A stretch of DNA of 64,000 nt from Candidatus Eiseniibacteriota bacterium (GCA_041946735.1 JBHGAY010000011.1:32001-96000); one strand, 5' to 3'. Shown: positions 29,046 to 43,550, counted from the stretch's first letter. Translations and numbers: made by a program. The notes: generated from the letters alone by a model not told the origin.

Positions 29046-31340
29046 CTACGAAGGCCGGACTTCTCCGCGCGGGGTCATCTCGATCACCGCGTCCGGCTGG
29101 CGCGTGGTCGACTTCCCGGTCTTCAGCCCGAGGACGAACCAGACCAGCGCGATCACGCCGAGGCCGAAGATCGAGTCTCCGACGATGCGCATCCATCGCA
29201 GCGTGTCCATCACCGGAGTTTGCAGGAACTCCGCCGATCGGGCGTACCAGTACCCGTGCTCGACGCTCGCCCAGGTCTGGATGAGCCCGACCGGCAGGAG
29301 TGACACGAGGACCATCCCGGCCAGCCCGATGTTGATCGCCCAGAACGCGAAGCCGACCACCTTGTCTTTCCAGACGAGGTGGGGCGTGAGGCCCTTAAGG
29401 CAGAAGAGCATCAGGCCGATCCCGAGCATCCCGTAGACGCCGAAGAGCGCCGAGTGCCCGTGTACCGGGGTCGTGTTGAGTCCCTGCATGTAGTAGAGGG
29501 CGATCGGCGGATTGATCAGGAATCCGAAGAGCCCGGCGCCGACCAAGTTCCAGAAGCCGACGGCGACGAAAAAGTAGATCGGCCACTTGTACGCCGCGAC
29601 CCACGGGCGCGCCCGCGACAACGTCAGGTTCTCGTACGCCTCGAACCCGATCAGCACGAGCGGGACGACCTCCAGCGCGCTGAACGTCGCGCCGAGCGCG
29701 AGGACCGAGATCGGCGTGCCGGTGAAGTAGAGATGGTGGAACGTTCCGATGATCCCGCCGGCCAGGAAAATGATCGTCGAGAAGAGAACGGCGGAGGTCG
29801 CCGTCGCGACGCGCAACAGCCCCATCCGCGTGAACAGGAAGGCGATCACGACCGTCGCGAAGACCTCGAAGAATCCTTCCACCCAGAGGTGCACGACCCA
29901 CCAGCGCCAGTATTCCGCGACGGCGAGGTTCGTGTTCCGTCCCCACATCAGCCCGGCGCCGTAGAACGCCGCGATGGCGGCCGAAGAGATCACGAACATT
30001 CCAAGGAGCGATCGGTTCTCGCTCGGCGTGCGGAGCATCGGCCACAGCGCGCGCACGAGCAGGAAGAGCCAGACGAACAGCCCGACGAAGAGGAAGATCT
30101 GCCAGAAGCGGCCGAGGTCGACGTACTCGTATCCCTGATGCCCGAACCAGAAGTTCGAGACGAAACCGAGCTTCTGCTGCGTCCCCAGCCATTGCCCGGC
30201 GAGCGATCCGACGACGATGACGAGCAGGGCGACGTAGAGGAAGTTGACGCCGAAGCGCTGGAAGCGAGGCTCACGCCCGGCGACCGCAGGGGCGACGAAG
30301 AGCCCCGTCGCGAGCCACGCGGTTGCGATCCAGAAGATGCCGAGCTGGATGTGCCACGTCCGAGTGACGGAGTAGGGCAGCCAGGAGGCGAGGCGAATCC
30401 CATAGAAGCCGTTCCCCTCGACGCCATAGTGGGCGGAGAGGATTCCGGGGAGGATCTGCGCGAGGAGCAGCCCCGCCGCTGTCCAGAAATACTTCCGCGT
30501 CGCCTTCATCGAGGCGGTTGCTTGCAGCGCGAGAAGCGGATCGCGCTTCGGGAGGTCCACCTCGTGCTGCGGTTTGCGCTTCTGCACCGCGAAGTACCAG
30601 GCGAGCGCCCCGATCCCCGCAAGCAGCAGGACGAAGCTCACGACCGACCAGACGACCGCCTGGCCGGTCGGCCGGTTGCCGATGAGCGGCTCGTGTGGCC
30701 AGTTCGAGGTGTAGGTGACGTCGCTTCCCGGCCGGTCGGTGGCGCACGCCCATGACGTCCAAAAGAAGAATGCGGCCATGTCGTGGCGGCGCGCCGGATC
30801 GGGCACGCTGTTCGAAGGGATCGCGTAGGCCTCGCGAAGCCGGTCGAGGGTCGACTCGTCGCCGAAGAGCGCCTCATAGTGCGCGCCGACCGCGGCGATG
30901 GCCGCCCCCCGGTCCGCGGAGATCACGATCTCGCCGGTCGCAGGATCGTAGGTGTTGCGGCGCAGCTCCTCGCTCAAGCGGACCCGAAGCGCTCCCTGTT
31001 CCTCAGCGGTCAGGCGGTCGTAGGGGAGGGAATGTTCGGCCTGGGCCCAGTGATCGAGCAGCCAGGTCGATTCACGATGCAGCCAGTCAGCCGACCAGTC
31101 CGGGGCTACGTACGCTCCATGTCCCCAGATCGATCCGACCTCCTGACCTCCCATCGATTGCCAGACGTTCTGGCCGTTCTGGATCTCGGCCGCGGTGAAG
31201 ATCGTCGTTCCTTCGGCCGTCCGCACGCGGGTAGGGATCGGCGGAGCCTTGTGGTAGATCTCACGGCCGAACCATCCGAGGACGGCAAACGAGCCAACGA
31301 CTACCACCGCGAACCAGATCCAAAGCTTCCGGTACTGCAT
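29046..31340 (-). CDS. norZ: Quinol-dependent nitric oxide reductase (qNor)
   Basis: SIWGHGAYVAPDWSADWLHRE, YTSNWP, TWHIQ, WWVVHLWVEGFFEVF, GTFHH, HGHSALFG. Confidence 0.96.
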   Translation of the reverse strand: MQYRKLWIWFAVVVVGSFAVLGWFGREIYHKAPPIPTRVRTAEGTTIFTAAEIQNGQNVWQSMGGQEVGSIWGHGAYVAPDWSADWLHRESTWLLDHWAQAEHSLPYDRLTAEEQGALRVRLSEELRRNTYDPATGEIVISADRGAAIAAVGAHYEALFGDESTLDRLREAYAIPSNSVPDPARRHDMAAFFFWTSWACATDRPGSDVTYTSNWPHEPLIGNRPTGQAVVWSVVSFVLLLAGIGALAWYFAVQKRKPQHEVDLPKRDPLLALQATASMKATRKYFWTAAGLLLAQILPGILSAHYGVEGNGFYGIRLASWLPYSVTRTWHIQLGIFWIATAWLATGLFVAPAVAGREPRFQRFGVNFLYVALLVIVVGSLAGQWLGTQQKLGFVSNFWFGHQGYEYVDLGRFWQIFLFVGLFVWLFLLVRALWPMLRTPSENRSLLGMFVISSAAIAAFYGAGLMWGRNTNLAVAEYWRWWVVHLWVEGFFEVFATVVIAFLFTRMGLLRVATATSAVLFSTIIFLAGGIIGTFHHLYFTGTPISVLALGATFSALEVVPLVLIGFEAYENLTLSRARPWVAAYKWPIYFFVAVGFWNLVGAGLFGFLINPPIALYYMQGLNTTPVHGHSALFGVYGMLGIGLMLFCLKGLTPHLVWKDKVVGFAFWAINIGLAGMVLVSLLPVGLIQTWASVEHGYWYARSAEFLQTPVMDTLRWMRIVGDSIFGLGVIALVWFVLGLKTGKSTTRQPDAVIEMTPRGEVRPS

Positions 31341-31548
31341 CTCGATCCTCCGAAGGCGGGTCGTACGAGCCGCCTTGTCGTTGTCTTGCCGGGACCGGCG
31401 TCCAGGGCGGGCAAGCCGGTCCGATGTCGTCCTCGGTCGCGCGGGCCGCGGGCTTGCTGGTCTCCCTGCGTGCCGCTGTTTCCGGGGGCCCCGGCGCGCG
31501 GGCGGGTCCCTTGCGTCGCGCGCCGCAGCCTGGCCCCGCGGAAGAACG

Positions 31549-32934
31549 TCAGCTCGCCGTTCTTCGCCTCGGCGGCGGCGCGATCGTGGGGGAAAGGTGA
31601 ATGTCCATCGGGTCCGAGCGGAGGGGGGCTCCGGCTCCCGACTGCGTGACCGCGATCTCGTTCCGGGCGAGCAGGATCCGGATCAGCTCGATCCCCCAGA
31701 TCGTCAATCCGGTCAGCTCGAGGAGCCCGCTGATCCCGGCGATCGGGTACGCGGCCGGAGTGAAGTCGGTCAGCACCTGCATCGTGACACGGAGCGCGCA
31801 GCCGGCGTTCACGAGGAGAAACGGGGCGAGCATCCGGCTCCCGGTCTCGGGGCGCCGTCCCGCGAGCGAGGGGATGACCTTCGAAGAGACTCCGAGAACG
31901 GTGAGAGAGAGGAATCCGACGGTGATCGCGTGGCGCATCGCTCCGTACCAGGCATGGGAGAACGCGACTCCGGAGAGCTTGAAGTAGAGCGGAGCCGTCG
32001 CAAGCATCGCCATCGAGACGAGCAGCCAGACGTGCGAGGCGCGGAGGAAGCGGCCCGATCGTCCGGCGCGCGGCAGCGGCTTCCAGAGGCGCATGGTCAG
32101 GACGAAGGCGACCGCGCCCGCCGTGAGAACCAGGATCGAGATCCCCATCACGGCTGCCCACAAGGGGGCGCGGGTCTGCATGAACCGGACGAAGCCGACA
32201 GCTTCCCCCAGGATCGCAAGGTCGAGCGGAATCCAGAGCCAGGAAAGGAGACGGCGCGAGGGCTCGGCCGATCCGAACGCGATCGGGAAGATCCGCTGCG
32301 AGACGCCGAAGATCATCATCATCGCCAGGCCGTGGATCTGGAGATCGCGGAGAGCGAACTGCCATCCGGCGACCTGATGGAGCAATGCCTCCTTCGTCGG
32401 CGCGGCGACGAGCCGCGTGACGTGAAAGAGGTCGACGAACGATCCGGCCAGGAACCAGACGGCCGCGGAGAGAATGTAGAAGTCGTGGTTCTCGAAGTGC
32501 CGGGTCTGCGCCGCTCCGCGATACTGATAGACACGAAAGAGGACGAACGCGAAGAGGGCGACCGCGCCGATCTGCAGAATCGAGCCCGCGATGGCCAAGG
32601 CGGCGAAGAGCGGCCGATCGTGGAGCGGCTCTCCCACCGACCGGAGGACGATGCCGAGCAGCATCGCAACGAGCGAGGCGCGCGCGAGGCGCGGCGCGGG
32701 CAGCGGAGTCCCGCGGAAACGGGGGAACGCCTCGTAGGCGAAGCCGAGGATGAACAGGCCGATCCACCCGTAGATCTGCGCCTGAGCGTGTGCGTTGACC
32801 TCGAAGATCGACAGCTTCGTGAACGACCGGTCGGAGGCGATCCGCAGGAGCAGGAACGCGCCCCATCCCACGCCGGCGGTGAGCGTCGTCACAATGGCGG
32901 CCAGGAAGAACGGGCGGTGCACGCGCGCGATCAT
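31549..32934 (-). CDS. nnrS: NnrS family membrane protein
   Basis: HAHAQIYGWIGLFILG, RHAITVGF, multi-TM; ATGA-coupled to DUF1858; adjacent to qNor. Confidence 0.8.
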   Translation of the reverse strand: MIARVHRPFFLAAIVTTLTAGVGWGAFLLLRIASDRSFTKLSIFEVNAHAQAQIYGWIGLFILGFAYEAFPRFRGTPLPAPRLARASLVAMLLGIVLRSVGEPLHDRPLFAALAIAGSILQIGAVALFAFVLFRVYQYRGAAQTRHFENHDFYILSAAVWFLAGSFVDLFHVTRLVAAPTKEALLHQVAGWQFALRDLQIHGLAMMMIFGVSQRIFPIAFGSAEPSRRLLSWLWIPLDLAILGEAVGFVRFMQTRAPLWAAVMGISILVLTAGAVAFVLTMRLWKPLPRAGRSGRFLRASHVWLLVSMAMLATAPLYFKLSGVAFSHAWYGAMRHAITVGFLSLTVLGVSSKVIPSLAGRRPETGSRMLAPFLLVNAGCALRVTMQVLTDFTPAAYPIAGISGLLELTGLTIWGIELIRILLARNEIAVTQSGAGAPLRSDPMDIHLSPTIAPPPRRRTAS

Positions 32935-33179
32935 GAGTTCTCCTCGCGGGCCGCCGCCCCTCCGAACCCTTCGCGGAGCCGGAGGAAACGGATGATATCG
33001 TCGACGAACCGGTCCGGATCGATCCCGTAGTTGGCGGCGCACTCGCGAAGCGTCTCGAAGGGAGCCATCACACATCCGACACAGGCCATGCCGTTATCGA
33101 GGAACACCTTCGTACACGCCGGCCAGCGCGCCAGGACGTCTCCTGACATCATCATGCCGTGGATCGCGACTTCGTTCAT
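32931..33179 (-). CDS. DUF1858 (hybrid-cluster-associated redox disulfide) protein
   Basis: VFLDNGMACVGC...ETLRECAANYGID; AAGGAGG RBS. Confidence 0.85.
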   Translation of the reverse strand: MNEVAIHGMMMSGDVLARWPACTKVFLDNGMACVGCVMAPFETLRECAANYGIDPDRFVDDIIRFLRLREGFGGAAAREENS

Positions 33180-33227
33180 CGGTCCTCCTTCGGCGGACAG
33201 GATGACGCTTCGCGCGCTCGCCCATCC

Positions 33228-33241
33228 TTGCGCCAGCGCAA
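33228..33241. promoter_or_regulatory. NnrR/Fnr-type operator TTGCG-N4-CGCAA
   Basis: TTGCGCCAGCGCAA with perfectly palindromic arms, ~50 bp upstream of the DUF1858-nnrS start and just downstream of the regulator gene. Confidence 0.8.
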
Positions 33242-33338
33242 AGTTCGCGAATCTTTTCTCTTGAGGGTCGGTCGGGTGGTGGGAATGTCCGAGTGCCTCG
33301 AAAAGCGGTGGCGACTCCGGATTCGGTGAACGAGTCTC

Positions 33339-34127
33339 CTATGTCTCTCCTTCATCCTCGGTGTCGTCGCGCGACCCGAGGTCTTCGGCGATGACGACAA
33401 GGGCGTGCGGCGAGAGGATTCGGACGTGCTCGCGCCCTGCGACGAGAATGCCGCGCTGCTCCCATTCCTTCAGCAGGCGGCTGACGGTGAAGAGTGTCGT
33501 GCCGGAGAGGCGGGCGAGGGTCTCGCGAGAGAGGGGCATGTCGATCCGCACTCCCTTTTCCTCTGCCGCTCTCCGGCCGGAATGACGAACGAGACGCAGA
33601 AGCGTGCGAGCCAGCCGCTGCGCGACCCGTTCGGTCGCTAGCTCCCGATAGCGATCCTCGACCTCGCGAATCCTGTGCAAGAGGATCTCGACCGCGTTGC
33701 GGGCGATCCGCGGGAAGCGTTGAAGGAGCTCCTCGATTGCGGCGCCATCCCACACGAGCGCCTCGCTCTCCTCGACCGCGCGAGCGGAGACCGGGTAGGA
33801 GACCTCGTCGAGGACGGCCGTCAGGGCGAAGATCTCCCCGGGGCCGATCAGGCGGAGGATCACCTCCTGACCGTCGGCGCCGGACTGGATCAGCGAGACC
33901 CGGCCGCGGAGGAGGAGGTGCAGGCGACACGGGCGGTCCCCTTGCTCGAAGAAGCTGCCGCGCCTTGCCGCCACATTGCGGGTCGCCGCTCGCGCGACGG
34001 CCGACTGCTCCGCCGCGGCGAGCCCGCGAAAGAGGGCCGTCCGTCCGAGGATCTCCGTCCAGCGTTCCGCATCCGACGCGCGGCCGGAGTTCCTGTCGCC
34101 CGGACGTCCCGTGCCTCTGCCTGCCAT
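33339..34127 (-). CDS. Crp/Fnr family regulator, NnrR/DNR-like
   Basis: cNMP-binding fold (FEQGD, GPGEIF, YPVSARA); HTH GTTLFTVSRLLKEWE; no Fnr Cys cluster; alternative GTG start at 34145. Confidence 0.88.
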   Translation of the reverse strand: MAGRGTGRPGDRNSGRASDAERWTEILGRTALFRGLAAAEQSAVARAATRNVAARRGSFFEQGDRPCRLHLLLRGRVSLIQSGADGQEVILRLIGPGEIFALTAVLDEVSYPVSARAVEESEALVWDGAAIEELLQRFPRIARNAVEILLHRIREVEDRYRELATERVAQRLARTLLRLVRHSGRRAAEEKGVRIDMPLSRETLARLSGTTLFTVSRLLKEWEQRGILVAGREHVRILSPHALVVIAEDLGSRDDTEDEGET

Positions 34128-34440
34128 GACTTCCGATGCTGCCACAATTCGGCCGGCCTCGCGCCGCCCTGGTCGATCCGCCTGCCCGGCCGGGTCGGGG
34201 GCGCGACCCTCGCCGCTGGCGCCGGCTCCGACCTTCGCCCGCCTCGGCGGTGTCCGCCTCCGGCTGGTTGACCCGCCTACGGCCGTCCCTTAAGATGGCC
34301 ACGCCGAAATCTTACCCTGAGCGTTCGATCGGGAGTCGAACCCCCGATTCGGGGAACGGTGAATGTAGCTTCGTTCGGGGATGTGGCTGGCAGGGACGAG
34401 TGGGGGGCCCCGCTCGGCCTCCAGCCGAATGAGGTGGACC

Positions 34441-35586
34441 GTGGCTGACACGGAGCGGGTCATCGTCGATCTGCTGCGCAGCTTGCTGTCGCATCCCGGC
34501 GAACGCGACCGCGAACGTTTGGCAGACTCCGCCGTCCTCTACATCCGCGCCTTCACGATGAGCCACCTCCGGCAGCGCCGCTTCGGTTTCGGGGAGAGCT
34601 TCGCCGACGTTGCGACCAGCGCGGCCGGCATCCAGGTGGCGAGGCTTCTGCAGTCCAGCCGCCGGCAGCCGGAGAACGGCGAGGAGCCGCGCGAGGATCT
34701 GGCGAGGCTGAGATCCGCGATGCACAGGCGGCTGATCCAGGAAGCGGCCGCTCCGCGCCTGCCGGCGCGCCGGCGGGCCAGAATCCGCCGCGCCGCGCAG
34801 GCGGTCGCTGCAGGCGCGACGATCCCGGCCGAGCTTCCCGACGACGTCGTCCTGGCCTGCTGGCGATCGATCCTGCGAGGCCTCGCGCATCGCGGGATCA
34901 TCGAGGTCTGGAATCAGGAACACCCGGAGCTCGCGCGACAGCTTCGCGCGCTCAAGCGGATCCTCGCCAAAGGAGAGGGGGTGAGGATTCGCAAAGAGAA
35001 CGCTCGCGGGCAGCTTCTGGTGAGCGACGGCAGCGCGCTTCACCGTCCGTGCATCGACAGAGACGCGCTGCAACGGATGCTGCACCCGATTCCACGCAGC
35101 GTCCCGGATCTCGCCGGTTTGCTCCCCTCGATCCTCGTGCCGTCCGAGATCCACGGGGGCTCGGCGTTCCTGATGGACTTCCTCATCGCATGGGAAGACG
35201 TCCTTCGCCGGGAGGTGCCGCCGGACACCGAGGAGAGCGCGTCGTCCCGCGATGGCGTCCCGATCGAGCGCCTCGCCGGAGAGCTTCCACCGATCCTGCG
35301 CCGCCGCGCGCGCGATCTGCTGCGCGCGGACCAGCGCAAAGGGACGTTCGCCGGCGATGCGGACGACCCCGCGTGCCGCCTGTCCAACGCCTACGTCGAG
35401 ATCTCGGTCGAGATGGTCTCGCGAGATTGCGGAGTGGGCAATCCCGAGTGGTCCCGTCTCTCGCAGAAGAAACTGATCGAGCGCCTTCTCCCGGACGTCG
35501 CGACCGACGGCGTTCTCGCGAGGCACCAGCAGAAGATCGACTACCTCGTTCTGCGCCTGCGCGGGACGATACGGGTCCAGCCATGA
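34441..35586 (+). CDS. Hypothetical protein; candidate highly divergent ECF-sigma-like factor
   Basis: GTG start with GAGGTG RBS; helical, no TM; sigma2-like WRSILRGLAHRGIIEVW and sigma4-like terminal KIDYLVLRLRGTIR; ATGA overlap with the next gene. The ORF is well supported but the function is inferred. Confidence 0.45.
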   Translation: MADTERVIVDLLRSLLSHPGERDRERLADSAVLYIRAFTMSHLRQRRFGFGESFADVATSAAGIQVARLLQSSRRQPENGEEPREDLARLRSAMHRRLIQEAAAPRLPARRRARIRRAAQAVAAGATIPAELPDDVVLACWRSILRGLAHRGIIEVWNQEHPELARQLRALKRILAKGEGVRIRKENARGQLLVSDGSALHRPCIDRDALQRMLHPIPRSVPDLAGLLPSILVPSEIHGGSAFLMDFLIAWEDVLRREVPPDTEESASSRDGVPIERLAGELPPILRRRARDLLRADQRKGTFAGDADDPACRLSNAYVEISVEMVSRDCGVGNPEWSRLSQKKLIERLLPDVATDGVLARHQQKIDYLVLRLRGTIRVQP

Positions 35587-37814
35587 GCCTGGCCGAGCGG
35601 CCGCGCGAGGAGGCCTACGCGATCCGGGAGCTGCACGAGATCGCGGCCGATCTCGACGAGCTTCTCGCCATCGCGCAGCCACCGCTCGTCACCCTCCACG
35701 CGACCCGGCGCTTCCTCGAAGTGCTGGTTCCGTACGGGTCGAACGGCTGGATCGCCTATGGGGAGCGTCCGACGGTCGCGTTGACGAGATCGCTCGAAAC
35801 GCTCCAGCCGCTCGAAGGGATCCCTCTCGAGGATCTGCAGGCGGTCCGCGCGCTGCTGCAGCAGCTCGCCGACCTCGCTCTCCCGCGCGGCGCCGTGTCG
35901 CCGATGTTCGATCTGCCCGCGGCCGCCCTCCGGTCGCTCGCCATCGTCGAGAATGGGATCGAGAGGCTCACCGCCCTGCTTTCCGGGAAGGAGCCCGATC
36001 CTCAGGCAACGGAGGACCGAGCCGCCGTTCTGCTCGTTCCGGTGGCCGTCGGGCTGCGGGCGGCACGCGTGGCCCATCCCCTCTTTGCCGGCATTCGCGC
36101 GGGCCAGATCGTGAGGCTGCGTGTCGAGGCGGAGATGGGGCGGCGGCGCGCCGGGCCCGACCAGCTCCTCCTCGACGGACGGGCGACCGCGGAGACGCGC
36201 GCGGCGTTCTGCGCCGCGCTGTCCCACTTGGGCCAGCTCTCCGTCCCGGGCGCCCCCCGCCTGGAGCGATGCTGGTTCCGCGCCGCCTGGACTCCGGGCG
36301 ACTGCGATCTGGCGGGACGGTCCGCGAGCCTGCCGTTCCTGCTCGCCGCCGCCGCCGCCCGCGCCGCGCTCGCCCCGGGCAGGTCGGCCCGCGAGACGGT
36401 GGCGGGGACCGCCGTCACTTCCGACCTCGACGGCACCCGCAGCGCGCCCGTCTCCGAGGGCTCGCTTGGTCTGAAGGTGGCCGCCTGTTTCCACGCGTCG
36501 GTCCGCCAGCTTCTCGTGCCGTTCGAGCAGCGACAGCAAGCGCAGGAAGCGCTGCGCGCGCTGGAGGCGAAGCACCCGGAACGCCAGCTCCTCGTGCGCG
36601 GCGTGCGGGACGCGCGAGACGCATGGGGAGATCCGGGCGTGATCCGGACGCGCACGCGCACGGCGGCAGAGGCCTGCTCGACCCTCCTGCATCGATTCGC
36701 CGCGAGCCGGACGTTTGCGGTCGTGGTCATTCTCGCGTTCCTCGTGCTCCTGCTGCTGATATTCCTCGCTCTCCGCTGGACGCACTACAACCCGGTCGCG
36801 CTGGACTGGTCGAAGGGCCGGGATGAGCTGCTGGTCAAGAACCAATACGGCTTCACGGTGCTCGCGCTGCCGATCAGGCACCAGCATCCGAACGAGGTTA
36901 GCCTCTTCGGATATTCGCGAGCCCTGGCGGACCTCGACGGAGACGGAGTCAAAGAAGTGATCGCCATCCACGACGGCCGGGAGGAGGCGTTCTCGGCCCT
37001 GAGCATGTTCGACAGGAAGAAGCAGCCGGTCTGGACCAGGTTCTGCAACGACCTTTCACCCGGCATCGAGCGCAAGGTGGATGGCTTGGCGTGGTTCGCT
37101 TTCCTGCCTCTCGAGCTTGGACCGGGGGAACCGGCGAGGCTCGCCTGCCTGCGCCGCTCACGACAGGGCAGTCTCTCGGTTCTGGAGATCGACGACGCGG
37201 CGACCGGGCAGCTCCTGGGGCGCATGAGCAACATCGGGCACATCGAGGCGATCTACGAGACCGATCTCGACCGAGACGGGCGGAAGGATTTGTGGGCGTG
37301 CGGTACGGACAACGTCACGGGCATGGCGCTTCTCGCCGTGCTCGATCCGGCGGCGTTTCGGATCGAGGAAGGCGCCACCCGTGTCTCGGATCTCCTGGGC
37401 TTGACCGATCCTCGGTCGCTCGGCGCCGGAGTCCTCTCGCTGGTGGAGCTGCCCAAGCTCTCCTACTCGCGATCGGAGAGGGCGCAATGCACGACAGTGC
37501 AGATCGGCGATGACGGTGGAGTGATCGCGGGGAGCGCGGACCCGGATGGTAATTGCCTGTTCCATCTGCGGTTCCCCGACCTTCGAGCCCCGGTCCTCGA
37601 TCATGTGCAAATCACCGATGCTGGACGGAGCATCATTCGGTTCCGGGCCGGGAGAGACGTTCCCCTCGCCGAGTTCGCGGCCGAGGAAGCGGCGATGGCG
37701 CAAGCGGCCCGCATTCTCACGCCGGACGGTTGGCGGCCCTGCCCGGGAGGGGAGGCATCGCAGCCGGCCCCGCGGGAATCGGAGATTTCTGAAATACCTG
37801 CCGGTGGCAGGTAG
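35583..37814 (+). CDS. Membrane-anchored Lon_C (S16)-like protease domain, TM helix and extracytoplasmic FG-GAP-like beta-propeller
   Basis: LAGRSAS (Ser247), AVTSDL, LGLKVAA (Lys298), LLVP; TM FAVVVILAFLVLLLLIFLAL (~36714-36773); ADLDGDGVKEV and TDLDRDGRKDL motifs. Confidence 0.68.
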   Translation: MSLAERPREEAYAIRELHEIAADLDELLAIAQPPLVTLHATRRFLEVLVPYGSNGWIAYGERPTVALTRSLETLQPLEGIPLEDLQAVRALLQQLADLALPRGAVSPMFDLPAAALRSLAIVENGIERLTALLSGKEPDPQATEDRAAVLLVPVAVGLRAARVAHPLFAGIRAGQIVRLRVEAEMGRRRAGPDQLLLDGRATAETRAAFCAALSHLGQLSVPGAPRLERCWFRAAWTPGDCDLAGRSASLPFLLAAAAARAALAPGRSARETVAGTAVTSDLDGTRSAPVSEGSLGLKVAACFHASVRQLLVPFEQRQQAQEALRALEAKHPERQLLVRGVRDARDAWGDPGVIRTRTRTAAEACSTLLHRFAASRTFAVVVILAFLVLLLLIFLALRWTHYNPVALDWSKGRDELLVKNQYGFTVLALPIRHQHPNEVSLFGYSRALADLDGDGVKEVIAIHDGREEAFSALSMFDRKKQPVWTRFCNDLSPGIERKVDGLAWFAFLPLELGPGEPARLACLRRSRQGSLSVLEIDDAATGQLLGRMSNIGHIEAIYETDLDRDGRKDLWACGTDNVTGMALLAVLDPAAFRIEEGATRVSDLLGLTDPRSLGAGVLSLVELPKLSYSRSERAQCTTVQIGDDGGVIAGSADPDGNCLFHLRFPDLRAPVLDHVQITDAGRSIIRFRAGRDVPLAEFAAEEAAMAQAARILTPDGWRPCPGGEASQPAPRESEISEIPAGGR

Positions 37815-37892
37815 GACGTCGAAGTGAGGGCGGCTCGGCCAGAAGGCGAGGGGTGGCCGAGCCGGCCGCGAGACGAGTAGGGAGCAGATGAC

Positions 37893-38537
37893 GTGAACCG
37901 TTGCTACAGAGAGAGTTCGATCGAGAGGGTAGCCGGCCGGCTCGCCCCTGGCGGCGATGCGGGCCTCGATCTCCTCGCCCGCTGGGCTGCCGGCGGCCCG
38001 GCTCGCCTGCGGCACGAGCGCGCCGAGTTCGCCGCCCACGTAGCCGCTTGCGCCAGGTGCGGCGGGATCTTCTCGGTCTTCCTCTCGACCGAGCGCTCCC
38101 TTTTGGCCGCCGCCGGGGCTACGAGCCCCGCCCCGCTGAGGCCGCTACCGGTCGTCCTCAGCCTCGCCGCGCCCGCGCAGAGAAGGCGCGGGACCATTCG
38201 TCGAGGGGATGGACTGACGGGGTCGGCGGACGATGCGGCCGTGGAAGCTGCGCGCGACTCGGATCGGCCGTGCTATCAGGTGGCGGCCGATGCGGGGGAC
38301 GCGCAGGACCCGGCAGTCCTGCCCACCATGGCGGAGATCACGCTCACCTCGGAGGACGGGCGCTGGGGCGTCCGGATCAAGCCCGATCCGCAGGGCGAGG
38401 GCGCGATCGCGATCCTCGTGCCGAGGCGGCAGGGAGCCGTCCTCCGATTGGGGGGCGTCGAGCATCTCTTCGATGAAGACGGGATCGCCCACTTGCCGTC
38501 CTCCCCGATCGGCGCCGCGTTTCTCATTCTCTCCTGA
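37893..38537 (+). CDS. Soluble zf-HC2/ZAS anti-sigma-like protein
   Basis: N-terminal Cys4 plus HVAACARC (H49/C53/C56); flexible linker with YQVAAD; small beta-rich C-domain; no TM. Confidence 0.62.
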   Translation: MNRCYRESSIERVAGRLAPGGDAGLDLLARWAAGGPARLRHERAEFAAHVAACARCGGIFSVFLSTERSLLAAAGATSPAPLRPLPVVLSLAAPAQRRRGTIRRGDGLTGSADDAAVEAARDSDRPCYQVAADAGDAQDPAVLPTMAEITLTSEDGRWGVRIKPDPQGEGAIAILVPRRQGAVLRLGGVEHLFDEDGIAHLPSSPIGAAFLILS

Positions 38538-40349: not shown

Positions 40350-43300
40350 CTACGACGACGCGACGCTTTCCGCCGCCTCTTCCCCCTTCATCCGCAGCCG
40401 CCGCGCCGGATCGGTGATGGCTCCGATCTTCACCGCGAAGCTGCTGCGCGCAGCGATGTCCTCGTCGGTCACGAAGTGGACGTCGAGCAGTCCCTCGGTC
40501 CGGTAGCCGGTGCGGAGATAGTTCAGCTCCGACAGGCAGCGGCTCCATCCGTCCAGCCAGGTCGAAAGCTCGATCCGCTGCCGCTCCGAACCCGCGAAGT
40601 GCAGGACGAGGTCGATGTCGCTCGCAGGCCCGGCGCTCGCGTTCTTCGTGCTCCCGATCAGGTAGAACCCCTTCAGGCCGAACCTCAGCGGATCGGTCTC
40701 GGCCGCGATCTGCTCGGCGAAGCGCAGGCGCCAACGCCAATGCTGCTCGGTGGTGGCGTGGTCCGCGGTGCCGGGGCTCTCCGGCACGCCGACGGCCTCC
40801 TGCGCGGGCATCAACACCCCGACCGCCTCGTCCAGATCGGCGTTCATCAAGACCTTCAGGATCATTCCGCCCGCCGACTGCGGCACGTCGATGACGTGGA
40901 TGACGTCGGAGAGATGCGCGAACTCCGGCAGGAAGTTCGTGAGCAGATTCTCCGACCTGCGGAAGAACGTCTCGTCGAAACGGATTCCGGGATCATCCGG
41001 ATAGAGCGGCAGGTAGCGGATCGACGCCTCGACCAGATCCTGGAAGAAGTGGGTTCCGAAGGAGAGGTCCGGACGGTAGTTCCCCTTCTTGCGCGCAATC
41101 TCGATCAGGACCGCGCAATTGTTGATGTCTGCATAGGTGACATTGACGCCGAGACGGATGTCTCCGCGGCTTCCCCATCGTCCCGGTCCCATCAGGATGA
41201 ACTGCCGCTTCGGGAGCATCTTGTTCAGCCGGCCGACTGCGCGGCCGACCGCGCGCAGCTCGTCCGGATCGGCGATCTCGTTGTACCCTTCCGGATCGAC
41301 ATACACGATGTGCGTGACGTCCGGCACCCGCCCGTTCGACACGTAACGCTTCGCCGAGAAGAGGACGCGATTCTCCGGAATGTCCCGCGGAATCGGCGCC
41401 GGCTGAGTCGCCGCCCCGCTGCTTTGCGGCCGGCACTGGAGCAGAAACAGCTGCTTGCCGTTGGAAGCGAACTCGATGTCGACCGGCGAGCCGATCGCGC
41501 GATGCAGGACCTCGAGGATCGCCTTGACCTGGCGGATGAACGGCGTCTCGCGGATCAGCCCCTCGAACGTCACGACGAGCTTCTCGTTTTGTAGATTCAC
41601 CTGCCGCCCGATCGGCGGATGCACGTGATCGCGCTCGTAGATCGAGACGAGATGGTGGATTCCCGGGACCTCGTCGCCATGGTTGCGAAAGACGTCGACC
41701 GCCTCGATCGTCTCGAACGTCCCTTCTCGGAGATTGAGAACGTCCATCTTCTTCGGGGAGTACTTCGCGATCTCGTCCGGCGTGACGTTGACGCGCAGGC
41801 CGGGCTGGCCGGGCGCGAGCAGGACCGGATAGTCGTCCTTCAGGCGGTCGACGGCGCGGCTGCCGAGCCCCGTCACGAGGCGTACCAGACCATCCTCGCG
41901 TTGGATGCGGCTGGACCAACGGAACTCGTTCCGGCTGAAGGCGACCCCCGAGAAGGCGGGGAAGTAGTAGTCGCCGACGCGGCAGCCGACCACCTCCTGA
42001 ATCAAGATCCCCATCTCCTCGTAGACGTCCAACAGCCCGCGCTCGGCGCGGTACTCGATCGGGTCGGGACCGAAGATCGACGCATACACCTCGGCGATCG
42101 CGTCCATCAACGCGGTCAGGCGCTCGCGCTTCGTCCCCTGGTTCGGAAGGAAGATGCTCTTGTACTTTCCGGAGAAGGCGGCGCCGAAGCGATCCTCGAG
42201 CAAGCTCGAGCTTCGGACGATGAGCGGAGTCTGCTCGAAGTCGTCGAGCACCTGCGACAGGGCGCGCACCATCTGCGGGGAGAAGCGGGAGTTCTTGAAC
42301 ACCTGGACGATGTGCGGGTACTCGTGCCGCACCTCGTCGATCTCGGCGTACTTGTGGTTGTAGATGTCCTCGAGCTCGTTGTAGCGGATGAAGTCGAGAA
42401 TCGAGTCGGACGTCATGTACCACGTCTTCGGCACCCGGATCTCGCCGAGATCCGGCACCGTCGCGGCCGCCTTGCGCAGGATCTGGCTGGCGACGAACAG
42501 GCCGGCCGCCTTCCCCCCGAGCTTCCCGTGACTGGTCGGCGGAAACACCAGGTGCTCCACGATCTCGAAGAAGTCATCGATGTCGAGGAATCGCTTCGCC
42601 ATTTCGACGAACTGCGGCTGTTCGGAGAAGAAGTGGCCGATCAGCGAGACTCGGAGCCCTTTCCGGGCCGCCGGGGAGATCTCGACCGCTTCGGGACCGA
42701 TGTGGTGGTAGCGGCGGATCGCCTCCGCGATCTCGTCGAGTCCGGAATCCGGGTTCCCGATGGTCGTCACGAGAAAACGGGCCTTGTCCTCCTTGATCCA
42801 CGATTGGATGCACGCGAGGATCTCGTCGTTGCTCAGGTACTGTCCCGCGATCCGGAAAGTCTCCTCGGTGATGTCCCGTTCCCATTCGGACCCCAGGCGG
42901 CGATGCGGTCGGTTGTCCTCGACCGCCGCGTCCTCGTCCTCGTCCTGGCCGGACAGATCGTGCAGGATGCTCACCGCTTCCTGCACGCCGATCCAGCCCA
43001 GGTGGTTGATCATCTTCCTCGAGATGCGGATCAGCAGCTCGTTGTCGGTGCGCCGGAGGAAGTCGAGGACGATGCGCCATGGCTCCGCGCGGCTCTCGAG
43101 CGAGCCCCGCGCCTCCTCCAGGTTGCGGAACGCGCTGCGCAGCTTGCGGTGCTCGATGTGGTGGCCGATCCGGTCGGCGATGTTGTCGAGCATCTTCCGC
43201 TCTTCCTGCAGGAACGGCCCTCCGTCGGATCGGACCGTCATCTCCGTGTAGACGACGTCGATGCGCCCGACCTTCTCGCCGTCGACGAGGATCGGCGCGG

Positions 43301-43550
43301 ACTGCACCCAGGGGCTCTCCTGGAAGTTCGGGCAGACGACGACGGTGTCGCGGTAGACGATGCGCGCGCGGCAGAGGCTCGGATACTGGAGGCCTGACGG
43401 GATCGACCGGAGGACGCCGGTCAGCACCTCCTCGAGCGGCACTTCGGTCTGGCTCAGCACTTCGTCCACCCTGTACAGGCAGTCGAGCTCCTTCGCGCGT
43501 TCCTGAAGGACGCGGAGGATCGGATCCATCGGAGTTTCGGGCGCTGTCAC
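40350..43550 (-). CDS. PEP-synthase/PPDK N-terminal (ATP-grasp) domain protein with N-terminal GAF-like region and C-terminal nucleotidyltransferase-like domain
   Basis: LGGKAAGL, IVRSSSLLED, FSGKY, IQEVVG, DIEFA, LLQCRP, SFGTHFF; C-terminal YLIGST...SDIDL. Confidence 0.85.
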   Translation of the reverse strand: MTAPETPMDPILRVLQERAKELDCLYRVDEVLSQTEVPLEEVLTGVLRSIPSGLQYPSLCRARIVYRDTVVVCPNFQESPWVQSAPILVDGEKVGRIDVVYTEMTVRSDGGPFLQEERKMLDNIADRIGHHIEHRKLRSAFRNLEEARGSLESRAEPWRIVLDFLRRTDNELLIRISRKMINHLGWIGVQEAVSILHDLSGQDEDEDAAVEDNRPHRRLGSEWERDITEETFRIAGQYLSNDEILACIQSWIKEDKARFLVTTIGNPDSGLDEIAEAIRRYHHIGPEAVEISPAARKGLRVSLIGHFFSEQPQFVEMAKRFLDIDDFFEIVEHLVFPPTSHGKLGGKAAGLFVASQILRKAAATVPDLGEIRVPKTWYMTSDSILDFIRYNELEDIYNHKYAEIDEVRHEYPHIVQVFKNSRFSPQMVRALSQVLDDFEQTPLIVRSSSLLEDRFGAAFSGKYKSIFLPNQGTKRERLTALMDAIAEVYASIFGPDPIEYRAERGLLDVYEEMGILIQEVVGCRVGDYYFPAFSGVAFSRNEFRWSSRIQREDGLVRLVTGLGSRAVDRLKDDYPVLLAPGQPGLRVNVTPDEIAKYSPKKMDVLNLREGTFETIEAVDVFRNHGDEVPGIHHLVSIYERDHVHPPIGRQVNLQNEKLVVTFEGLIRETPFIRQVKAILEVLHRAIGSPVDIEFASNGKQLFLLQCRPQSSGAATQPAPIPRDIPENRVLFSAKRYVSNGRVPDVTHIVYVDPEGYNEIADPDELRAVGRAVGRLNKMLPKRQFILMGPGRWGSRGDIRLGVNVTYADINNCAVLIEIARKKGNYRPDLSFGTHFFQDLVEASIRYLPLYPDDPGIRFDETFFRRSENLLTNFLPEFAHLSDVIHVIDVPQSAGGMILKVLMNADLDEAVGVLMPAQEAVGVPESPGTADHATTEQHWRWRLRFAEQIAAETDPLRFGLKGFYLIGSTKNASAGPASDIDLVLHFAGSERQRIELSTWLDGWSRCLSELNYLRTGYRTEGLLDVHFVTDEDIAARSSFAVKIGAITDPARRLRMKGEEAAESVASS

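Follow-up and report, generated by a model that had tools for sequence, protein, structure and literature searches.

The stretch of DNA analyzed here is a 64,000-nucleotide (nt) segment from Candidatus Eiseniibacteriota bacterium (GCA_041946735.1 JBHGAY010000011.1:32001-96000), referred to below as the window. Its plus strand encodes, between positions 34,441 and 38,537, three consecutive open reading frames (ORFs): ORF1, a protein with a predicted sigma region-2-like domain; ORF2, a membrane protein with a Lon-type protease domain; and ORF3, a small soluble protein resembling zinc-binding anti-sigma (ZAS) factors. Together they make up a genuine module, conserved in more than one phylum, that would represent a new form of protease-gated sigma/anti-sigma signalling. 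A preliminary description, made from the sequence alone, had proposed three co-oriented genes for a sigma-like factor, a membrane Lon-type protease with an outer propeller and a zinc anti-sigma, and the three ORFs were found on the plus strand exactly where it placed them, with the ATGA overlap between ORF1 and ORF2 and the 78-nt gap before ORF3 (Table 1). None of the three proteins reached a family in Pfam, NCBIfam or PADLOC, the sole signal being a sub-threshold FG-GAP match in ORF2. The third-position GC content is 0.83-0.84 in all three frames, comparable to that of known genes nearby, which argues that these are not chance ORFs of a GC-rich genome (68% GC); that explanation was ruled out by codon-position GC content together with conservation. 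The GTG at 34441, used here as the start of ORF1, has a Shine-Dalgarno-like site (GAGGTGG) immediately 5′ to it and is also the start in the ESM Atlas record of the protein.

Table 1. Features of the three-gene cassette and its surroundings, in window coordinates. The arrow marks the candidate cleavage position.
Feature	Position	Strand	Remarks
Sigma-70-type promoter-like site, TTGACC-17-TAAGAT	34268..34296	+	5′ of ORF1; consensus match only
ORF1	34441..35586	+	GTG start at 34441, 381 amino acids; alternative ATG at 34381 or 34429 in the open frame
ORF1 N-terminal domain, predicted sigma region-2-like fold with a large insertion	34438..34926	+	Residues ~20-182 in 401-residue numbering; majority of the predicted ORF3 contacts
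ORF1 middle domain (alpha/beta) and C-terminal domain (four helices), both predicted	34927..35577	+	Residues 183-399; no clear known fold
ORF2	35583..37814	+	743 amino acids; ATG overlaps the ORF1 TGA as ATGA at 35583-35586
Lon (S16)-like protease domain of ORF2	36120..36632	+	Residues ~180-350; Ser247 codon 36321-36323, Lys298 codon 36474-36476
Single transmembrane helix of ORF2 (predicted)	36717..36779	+	Residues ~379-399
Extracytoplasmic sensor-type domain of ORF2, FG-GAP-like repeats (predicted)	36780..37811	+	
10-bp GC-rich inverted repeat	37831..37864	+	Between ORF2 and ORF3; 14-nt loop, no T-run; read from sequence
ORF3	37893..38537	+	GTG start, 214 amino acids; 78 nt past the ORF2 stop; GGGAG 8 nt upstream
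ORF3 N-terminal ZAS-like head	37893..38117	+	Cys4, His49 (38037-38039), Cys53 (38049-38051), Cys56 (38058-38060)
Invariant Ala131-Ala132 in the ORF3 linker	38283..38288	+	...YQVAA↓D...; candidate cleavage site
ORF3 conserved C-terminal domain	38325..38534	+	Residues ~145-214; most conserved region of ORF3

Judged by its sequence, ORF2 combines an ATPase-less Lon (S16)-like protease domain with an outer domain of the FG-GAP type, the two being linked by a single membrane helix, in line with the preliminary description. A profile of the ORF2 family, compared with the sequences of the PDB, matched the protease domain of LonB from A. fulgidus (Archaeoglobus; 1z0b, E 3.7e-5), and the alignment pairs the catalytic Ser and Lys. 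Of the 28 PDB sequences found at E<=1, 24 were Lon. The two residues of the putative dyad, Ser247 and Lys298, are invariant among the ORF2 orthologues, where they stand in the context G-R-S-A-G-L ... A-T-G ... P-V ... K-x-x-A-C ... V-P-x-x-Q. Both were present in 24 of 26 proteins of the wider own-phylum set, the two misses being one fragment and one kinase fusion, and the homologues in Bacteroidota kept the Ser in 24/25 and the Lys in 25/25. Canonical Lon genes were retrieved by this profile as well, in eight loci, where they were recognized by Lon_C at E<=3e-78 and by Lon_lid, and in seven of them by AAA too; in ORF2 itself no AAA family of Pfam or NCBIfam was matched. FG-GAP scored 18.5 bits in ORF2 against a Pfam cut-off of 26.9 and lies above the cut-off in relatives, and a word-based protein search with ORF2 gave no match. 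The protein has one strong hydrophobic segment (residues ~379-397, Kyte-Doolittle 19-residue mean 3.54). As its N-terminus is not signal peptide-like, the first 378 residues, which include the protease domain, are probably cytoplasmic, and the FG-GAP-type domain, which may have the shape of a propeller, would lie outside. The ESM Atlas model of ORF2, used as a lead only, aligned over residues ~12-365 to Lon clusters and over its C-terminal part to clusters bearing FG-GAP. Another structural neighbour in the Atlas, again a lead only, was a cluster of which 97% carry Trans_reg_C, a DNA-binding domain of the OmpR/ToxR type (template modelling score 0.38 by query and 0.52 by row), and by this model-based likeness ToxR-like one-component membrane regulators may carry the sensor domain of ORF2.

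ORF3 appears to be soluble, with no hydrophobic segment above 1.6 on the Kyte-Doolittle scale, and is built of a small head, a variable linker and a C-terminal domain. In the head, His49, Cys53 and Cys56 (HxxxCxxC) are nearly invariant among the orthologues, and a Cys or His is found at position 3-4 in 9/11 of them; H-x3-C-x2-C with an upstream fourth ligand reproduces, at the level of the motif, the ligand pattern of ZAS proteins. After the variable linker, Ala131-Ala132 is kept in all 11 ORF3 sequences, in the context ...Y-x-V/L-A-A-D..., and the conserved C-terminal domain that follows would dock on the protease. A profile of ORF3 found no match among the PDB sequences.

The arrangement of the three genes is well conserved in the lineage of the source genome. 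Of 40 related genomes, 10 contained a full-length orthologue of ORF2 with 27-35% identity, and these 10 belong to the order of the source genome; a profile search of 206 genomes of the phylum yielded full-length ORF2 matches in 11 genomes, the source genome included. ORF1 was found directly upstream of ORF2 in 10 of these 11 loci (nine by tblastn and one more by profile), and ORF3 directly downstream in all ten loci that could be judged, one further locus ending at a contig edge. A short contig belonging to a different family within the class likewise carried the ORF1-ORF2 junction. Hence the preliminary description's expectation that the triad would recur in other genomes was borne out, in 11 genomes of one order and, in rearranged form, in 17/20 loci of Bacteroidota, described below. 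Paralogous loci of the same phylum place the protease in a sigma/anti-sigma setting, in support of the preliminary interpretation. Genes with Sigma70_r4_2 or r2 domains, which are canonical extracytoplasmic function (ECF) sigmas, adjoin the protease paralogues in 4 of 11 such loci, and in a fifth the protease paralogue lies beside a near-threshold zf-HC2 protein (21.9 bits, cut-off 22.2). ORF3-like genes adjoin the paralogous proteases in seven of the 11 loci, three recognized by profile and four by the motif together with C-terminal similarity. The window's own contig holds none of the 32 Sigma70_r4_2 matches of the genome.

Relatives of the cassette are widespread in Bacteroidota, in two arrangements. 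The ORF1 family is present in 104 of the 301 Bacteroidia genomes sampled, and in 29/32 loci the gene right after it encodes a protein that starts with His3 ... His29-x3-Cys-x2-Cys (H-x25-HxxxCxxC). In 24 of these 29 proteins, which are ~470 amino acids long, a membrane segment lies near residue 103-129. Among all 32 downstream proteins, the ORF2 profile matches the membrane-plus-outer region in 17 (best E 4.9e-19) and the ORF3 profile matches the head in eight, and zf-HC2 falls just under its cut-off in four of the 29 (16.9-19.6 bits). As far as sequence can tell, such a pair of genes follows the textbook sigma/anti-sigma layout, and the ORF1 family occupies the position of the sigma. In the second arrangement the protease is retained. 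Relatives detected by the ORF2 profile occur in 47 of 401 Bacteroidota genomes sampled, and a gene of the ORF1 family lies upstream, on the same strand, in 17 of 20 loci with an ORF2-like gene. Between the two, 16 of 18 cassettes carry an ORF of 246-315 amino acids with an anti-sigma-like N-terminal helix pattern, so that the gene order is ORF1, small partner and protease (in one to three tandem copies), compared with ORF1, protease and small partner in the window. The zinc motif is retained in the small partners of only 4/18 cassettes, while [V/L/I/M]-x-A-A stands at the position of Ala131-Ala132 in 18 of 20 small partners; NCBIfam gave nothing for these proteins.

The outer domain of ORF2 is thus found with the protease, with the ZAS head of the Bacteroidia proteins and, in one locus (L063 5998-8946, G006:C17), with a Ser/Thr kinase that is fused to an ORF2-type membrane helix and outer domain (E 5e-36) and encoded beside an ECF sigma gene. 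Its occurrence with three different cytoplasmic transducers points to a portable sensor. Several loci deviate from the usual arrangements. Two or three tandem genes for Lon-like membrane proteases stand in one cassette at L057 5584-10480 and in L130, L138 and L141; such copies could form hetero-oligomers or provide several inputs to one output. At L128 7822-8900 (G742:C5) an ORF1-family gene is split over three reading frames beside an intact protease gene, either because the copy is decaying or, possibly, through an error of assembly. At L064 6001-10434, in a metagenome-assembled genome of Chitinophagales, one paralogue of the ORF1 family lacks a ZAS-type gene downstream. In its place comes a gene for a 960-amino-acid protein with Peptidase_MA_2, PD40 beta-propeller and Omp85-like regions, and then genes for BamB-like and PEGA proteins.

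Sequence comparisons place ORF1 in a large unannotated family, with 163 representative proteins at E<=0.001, 45 of these at E<=1e-30. The members are ~340-400 amino acids long and are recorded as hypothetical proteins in the source databases, as is a partial record 98% identical to ORF1 (hypothetical protein of Candidatus Eisenbacteria). The distant members clearly belong to the same family, as an alignment of 25 of them, of ~340 amino acids, matched the ORF1 alignment across 319 columns at an hhalign probability of 99.5% (E 2.7e-22). No NCBIfam family was found in four distant members scanned, nor in the ORF1-like proteins of Bacteroidota, and the ORF1 profile had no match among the PDB sequences. 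ORF1 has no hydrophobic segment above 1.6 (Kyte-Doolittle, 19-residue mean), and its AlphaFold2 model is mostly helical (predicted local distance difference test, pLDDT, 84.6; predicted template modelling score, pTM, 0.62). When the model was compared with known structures by VIA-align, its residues ~20-182 matched sigma region-2 domains in 18 of the 50 rows listed, with middling Z scores (7.0-7.6) and near-complete coverage of the domain, and solved examples of ZAS/ECF sigma were present among the matches. No sigma-4 domain was found among the matches listed for the whole model or for residues 183-401, an absence that does not prove a different fold, and the middle domain (183-290) was barely probed by these match lists. 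Foldseek against the PDB likewise returned nothing at E<=0.001 for the whole model or for residues 183-401.

The complex of ORF1 (residues 20-401) with the head of ORF3 (residues 1-100) was predicted with high scores. The interface score ipSAE (interaction prediction score from aligned errors) was 0.85 in all three runs and 0.00 for the best of three controls, where a mark of this type is reached by 116 of 157 solved complexes and by 2 of 215 mismatched pairs, counts that hold roughly here, since the alignments were made for this analysis. The runs agreed in at least 67% of the contacts, and the pLDDT of the partner was at least 71. In the predicted interface, residues 3-12 and 52-74 of ORF3, the ligand-bearing helices, pack against residues 20-24, 53-65, 121-125 and 155-163 of ORF1, which lie in the sigma-2-like domain, together with a few residues of the middle domain. 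These models support the binding of ORF1 by the head of ORF3, and with the conserved ZAS-like motif they lend support to the earlier view of ORF3 as an anti-sigma-type protein. A joint loss in one genome (G008, see below) speaks for the pairing independently of the models, since ORF1 is absent there and ORF3 has lost precisely the HxxxCxxC segment.

Taking these observations together, we consider it rather likely that the three genes encode a conserved transmembrane module in which a sensor-protease cleaves the soluble, anti-sigma-like ORF3 and thereby frees ORF1. The outer FG-GAP-type domain of the single-pass ORF2 would sense a signal, while in the cytoplasm the zinc-motif head of ORF3 would hold ORF1 and the C-terminal domain of ORF3 would serve as a handle for the protease. 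On the signal, which might activate the protease by oligomerization, as the preliminary description proposed, ORF2 would cut the ORF3 linker by means of Ser247 and Lys298, probably after Ala132. The new C-terminus, of the ...VAA/LAA type, would mark the head fragment for degradation of the ClpXP type; ClpP and ClpX are both encoded in the source genome. ORF1 would then be free, and its output would most likely be that of an RNA-polymerase-directed factor with a sigma-2-like N-terminal domain.

Several observations weigh against this reading. The relation of ORF1 to sigma factors is partial and appears at the level of the predicted fold only. When the ORF1 families were aligned with six ECF sigmas of the cassettes and with 25 ECF sigmas of the own genome, the hhalign probability was below 1%, and neither ORF1 nor any one of 92 distant relatives matched a sigma family of Pfam (including Sigma70_r4 and r4_2). 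The term sigma-like used for ORF1 in the preliminary description therefore stands for the predicted fold of residues ~20-182; it has no counterpart in the sequence comparisons, and no sigma-4 domain was found. The complex score, too, could partly reflect the memory of the model for solved sigma/anti-sigma complexes. ORF2 and ORF3 reach their families through relatives or motifs only. ORF2 itself has no Pfam Lon_C match at E<=1 (gathering cut-off 21.1 bits), whereas paralogues of the same architecture in the phylum reach the Lon_C cut-off in four loci (22.0-26.0 bits) and FG-GAP_3 in two, so ORF2 would belong to Lon_C by transitive homology only. For ORF3, the zf-HC2 family of Pfam (cut-off 22.2 bits) was not reached, and one of the 11 members matched it, at E 0.091. 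The choice of ORF3 as substrate, and of its cleavage site, is suggested by conservation and by the likeness to the protein CalpT only. The promoter region gives no hint of autoregulation. The promoter-like site 5′ of ORF1 is of the housekeeping type (one such site was found, against a mean of 0.1 in shuffled sequences), and comparable sigma-70-type sites lie 5′ of ORF1 in 4/10 orthologous loci. The upstream regions of the ORF1 orthologues had no non-canonical promoter motif in common and no hexamer shared beyond the sharing in shuffled sequences, and so there was no sign of an autoregulated ECF-type promoter. Finally, one genome that is 99% complete (G008) has no ORF1 anywhere. Its ORF3 lacks exactly the HxxxCxxC segment, whereas helix 1, the Ala-Ala site and the C-terminal domain are kept. 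In that genome the protease is thus retained together with a head-less ORF3, and this pair may have a role that is independent of ORF1.

The partial sigma character of ORF1 leaves room for a different output under the same protease/anti-sigma logic, in which ORF1 is a sequestered protein other than a sigma, such as a DNA-binding regulator, an RNA-polymerase accessory factor or an antiterminator-like protein, that shares a helical sub-fold with sigma-2. We consider this unlikely, since the family sits where canonical ECF sigmas sit beside ZAS-type partners, sigma-2 domains account for 18 of the 50 fold rows listed at near-complete coverage, and the predicted anti-sigma-like contact falls on the very domain that resembles sigma-2. 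The retention of the protease with the C-terminal domain of ORF3 in the genome that lacks ORF1 would also fit another arrangement, in which ORF3 is a regulator or adaptor of the protease and not its substrate, and ORF2 cleaves ORF1, itself or other proteins, for example in membrane-linked quality control. The tandem protease genes of some loci would agree with this as well. It is nevertheless improbable in our view, as it accounts neither for the Ala-Ala linker motif, kept across two phyla at the position where CalpT is cut according to the CalpL report, nor for the tight linkage to sigma or anti-sigma-type genes in every variant examined.

The likeness to the CalpL-CalpT-CalpS system, linked to type III clustered regularly interspaced short palindromic repeats (CRISPR), raises the further thought that the cassette is a CRISPR-free relative serving in defence against phages, given that the three-part logic is the same. 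This we regard as highly improbable. None of the three proteins matched a PADLOC family and ORF2 had no match to SAVED or another nucleotide-sensor domain, CRISPR arrays and cas genes not having been searched for; the sensor is predicted to be extracytoplasmic; and the neighbours are genes of nitric-oxide respiration and housekeeping. To this extent the independence from CRISPR proposed in the preliminary description is supported.

Returning to the reading in which ORF2 releases ORF1 by cleaving ORF3, a bolder extension concerns the whole ORF1 family, and we offer it tentatively, as possible and somewhat doubtful. The family, with its ~340-amino-acid relatives, is assigned to no Pfam or NCBIfam family and may be an unrecognized class of RNA-polymerase-directed factors with a sigma-2-like head and novel middle and C-terminal domains, the C-terminal one being closest to the lambda Q antiterminator. 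Its members would be held by proteins with anti-sigma domains and, in one branch, set free by a single transmembrane protein that serves as sensor and protease and generates an Ala-Ala degron. Fibrobacterota, Chlorobiota and Bacteroidota are taken here as one group, and if the extension is true the ORF1 family is a new sigma/anti-sigma branch across it. The main reading, if true, would by itself provide a function for this large unnamed family, whose members always accompany anti-sigma-type partners.

The surroundings of the cassette contain other features of interest. The inverted repeat between ORF2 and ORF3 could be an element of RNA stability or attenuation that sets the ratio of ORF3 to ORF2. 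Upstream of the cassette, on the minus strand, positions 29046-34145 hold a nitric-oxide respiration cluster with genes for a quinol-type nitric-oxide reductase (NorB cytochrome c-like and COX1), an NnrS protein, a DUF1858 protein and a Crp/Fnr-type regulator. Also on the minus strand, positions 40350-43550 encode a protein of 1066 amino acids with a central PPDK_N domain (pyruvate phosphate dikinase, ATP-binding), flanked on both sides by long regions that lack annotation.

The literature covered, which excluded subscription journals, yielded no account of a module of this kind, and a search for ECF, anti-sigma and Lon protease domain in combination returned only the CalpL papers and a review of Bacillus proteases. 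Its parts can nonetheless be compared with known systems. The closest known counterparts of the ORF2 protease domain are the archaeal membrane-anchored LonB and other Lon (S16) proteases, as LonB is the best match of the profile and the Ser-Lys dyad is aligned. Unlike them, ORF2 has no AAA+ module, and its membrane helix lies C-terminal to the protease domain, with a large outer domain beyond; its proteolysis would be specific and not general. With the ZAS anti-sigmas (RsrA, ChrR, RsiW, RslA) ORF3 shares the HxxxCxxC motif, the upstream Cys/His ligand and the predicted binding to a sigma-2-like domain, and the ORF1-family genes of Bacteroidia stand next to genes for ZAS-membrane-sensor proteins, a two-gene layout that is classic for ZAS/ECF pairs. 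In contrast to those pairs, ORF3 and its relatives stay below Pfam zf-HC2, and the partner is a protein of ~340-400 amino acids without a detectable sigma-70 r2 or r4 sequence signature.

In the RseA cascade a membrane-spanning anti-sigma is cut by DegS, then by RseP and then by ClpXP. The route proposed here is similar in that an outside signal would lead to proteolysis of the anti-sigma, a C-terminal Ala-Ala degron would direct it to ClpXP and the sigma would be released. The two differ in that there the anti-sigma spans the membrane and two proteases act in sequence, whereas here the protease spans the membrane and would itself be the sensor, ORF3 is soluble and the cassette contains no site-2 protease gene.

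The known system closest to the cassette is CalpL-CalpT-CalpS, in which, as reported, CalpL cleaves CalpT, a MazF-like protein with DUF2080, at an LAA↓A motif. The Ala-Ala end produced by this cut serves as a degron, likened there to the VAA end of RseA, and the sigma-type partner is then released (10.1101/2024.05.08.593097). No CalpL entry was among the PDB sequence matches of the ORF2 profile at E<=1. The sensors differ, CalpL having a cytoplasmic SAVED domain that binds cyclic tetra-adenylate (cA4) and ORF2 a predicted extracytoplasmic FG-GAP-type domain behind a membrane helix, and so do the partners, as ORF3 has a ZAS-like head instead of the parts described for CalpT, and ORF1, unlike CalpS, is not recognizable as an ECF sigma; the genomic settings differ too. 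What the two systems appear to share is the logic by which an ATPase-less Lon-type protease with a sensor of its own would act on a soluble protein of the anti-sigma type and cleave it while it holds its sigma-type partner, down to the Ala-rich site, LAA↓A in CalpT and an invariant motif of the ...VAA↓D type in ORF3. If this is true, gene expression in bacteria of at least two phyla is controlled through one membrane protein that is at once receptor and protease. Such a route would be simpler than the cascades of several proteases known for ECF sigma factors, and it would be a membrane counterpart to CalpL with its link to CRISPR.

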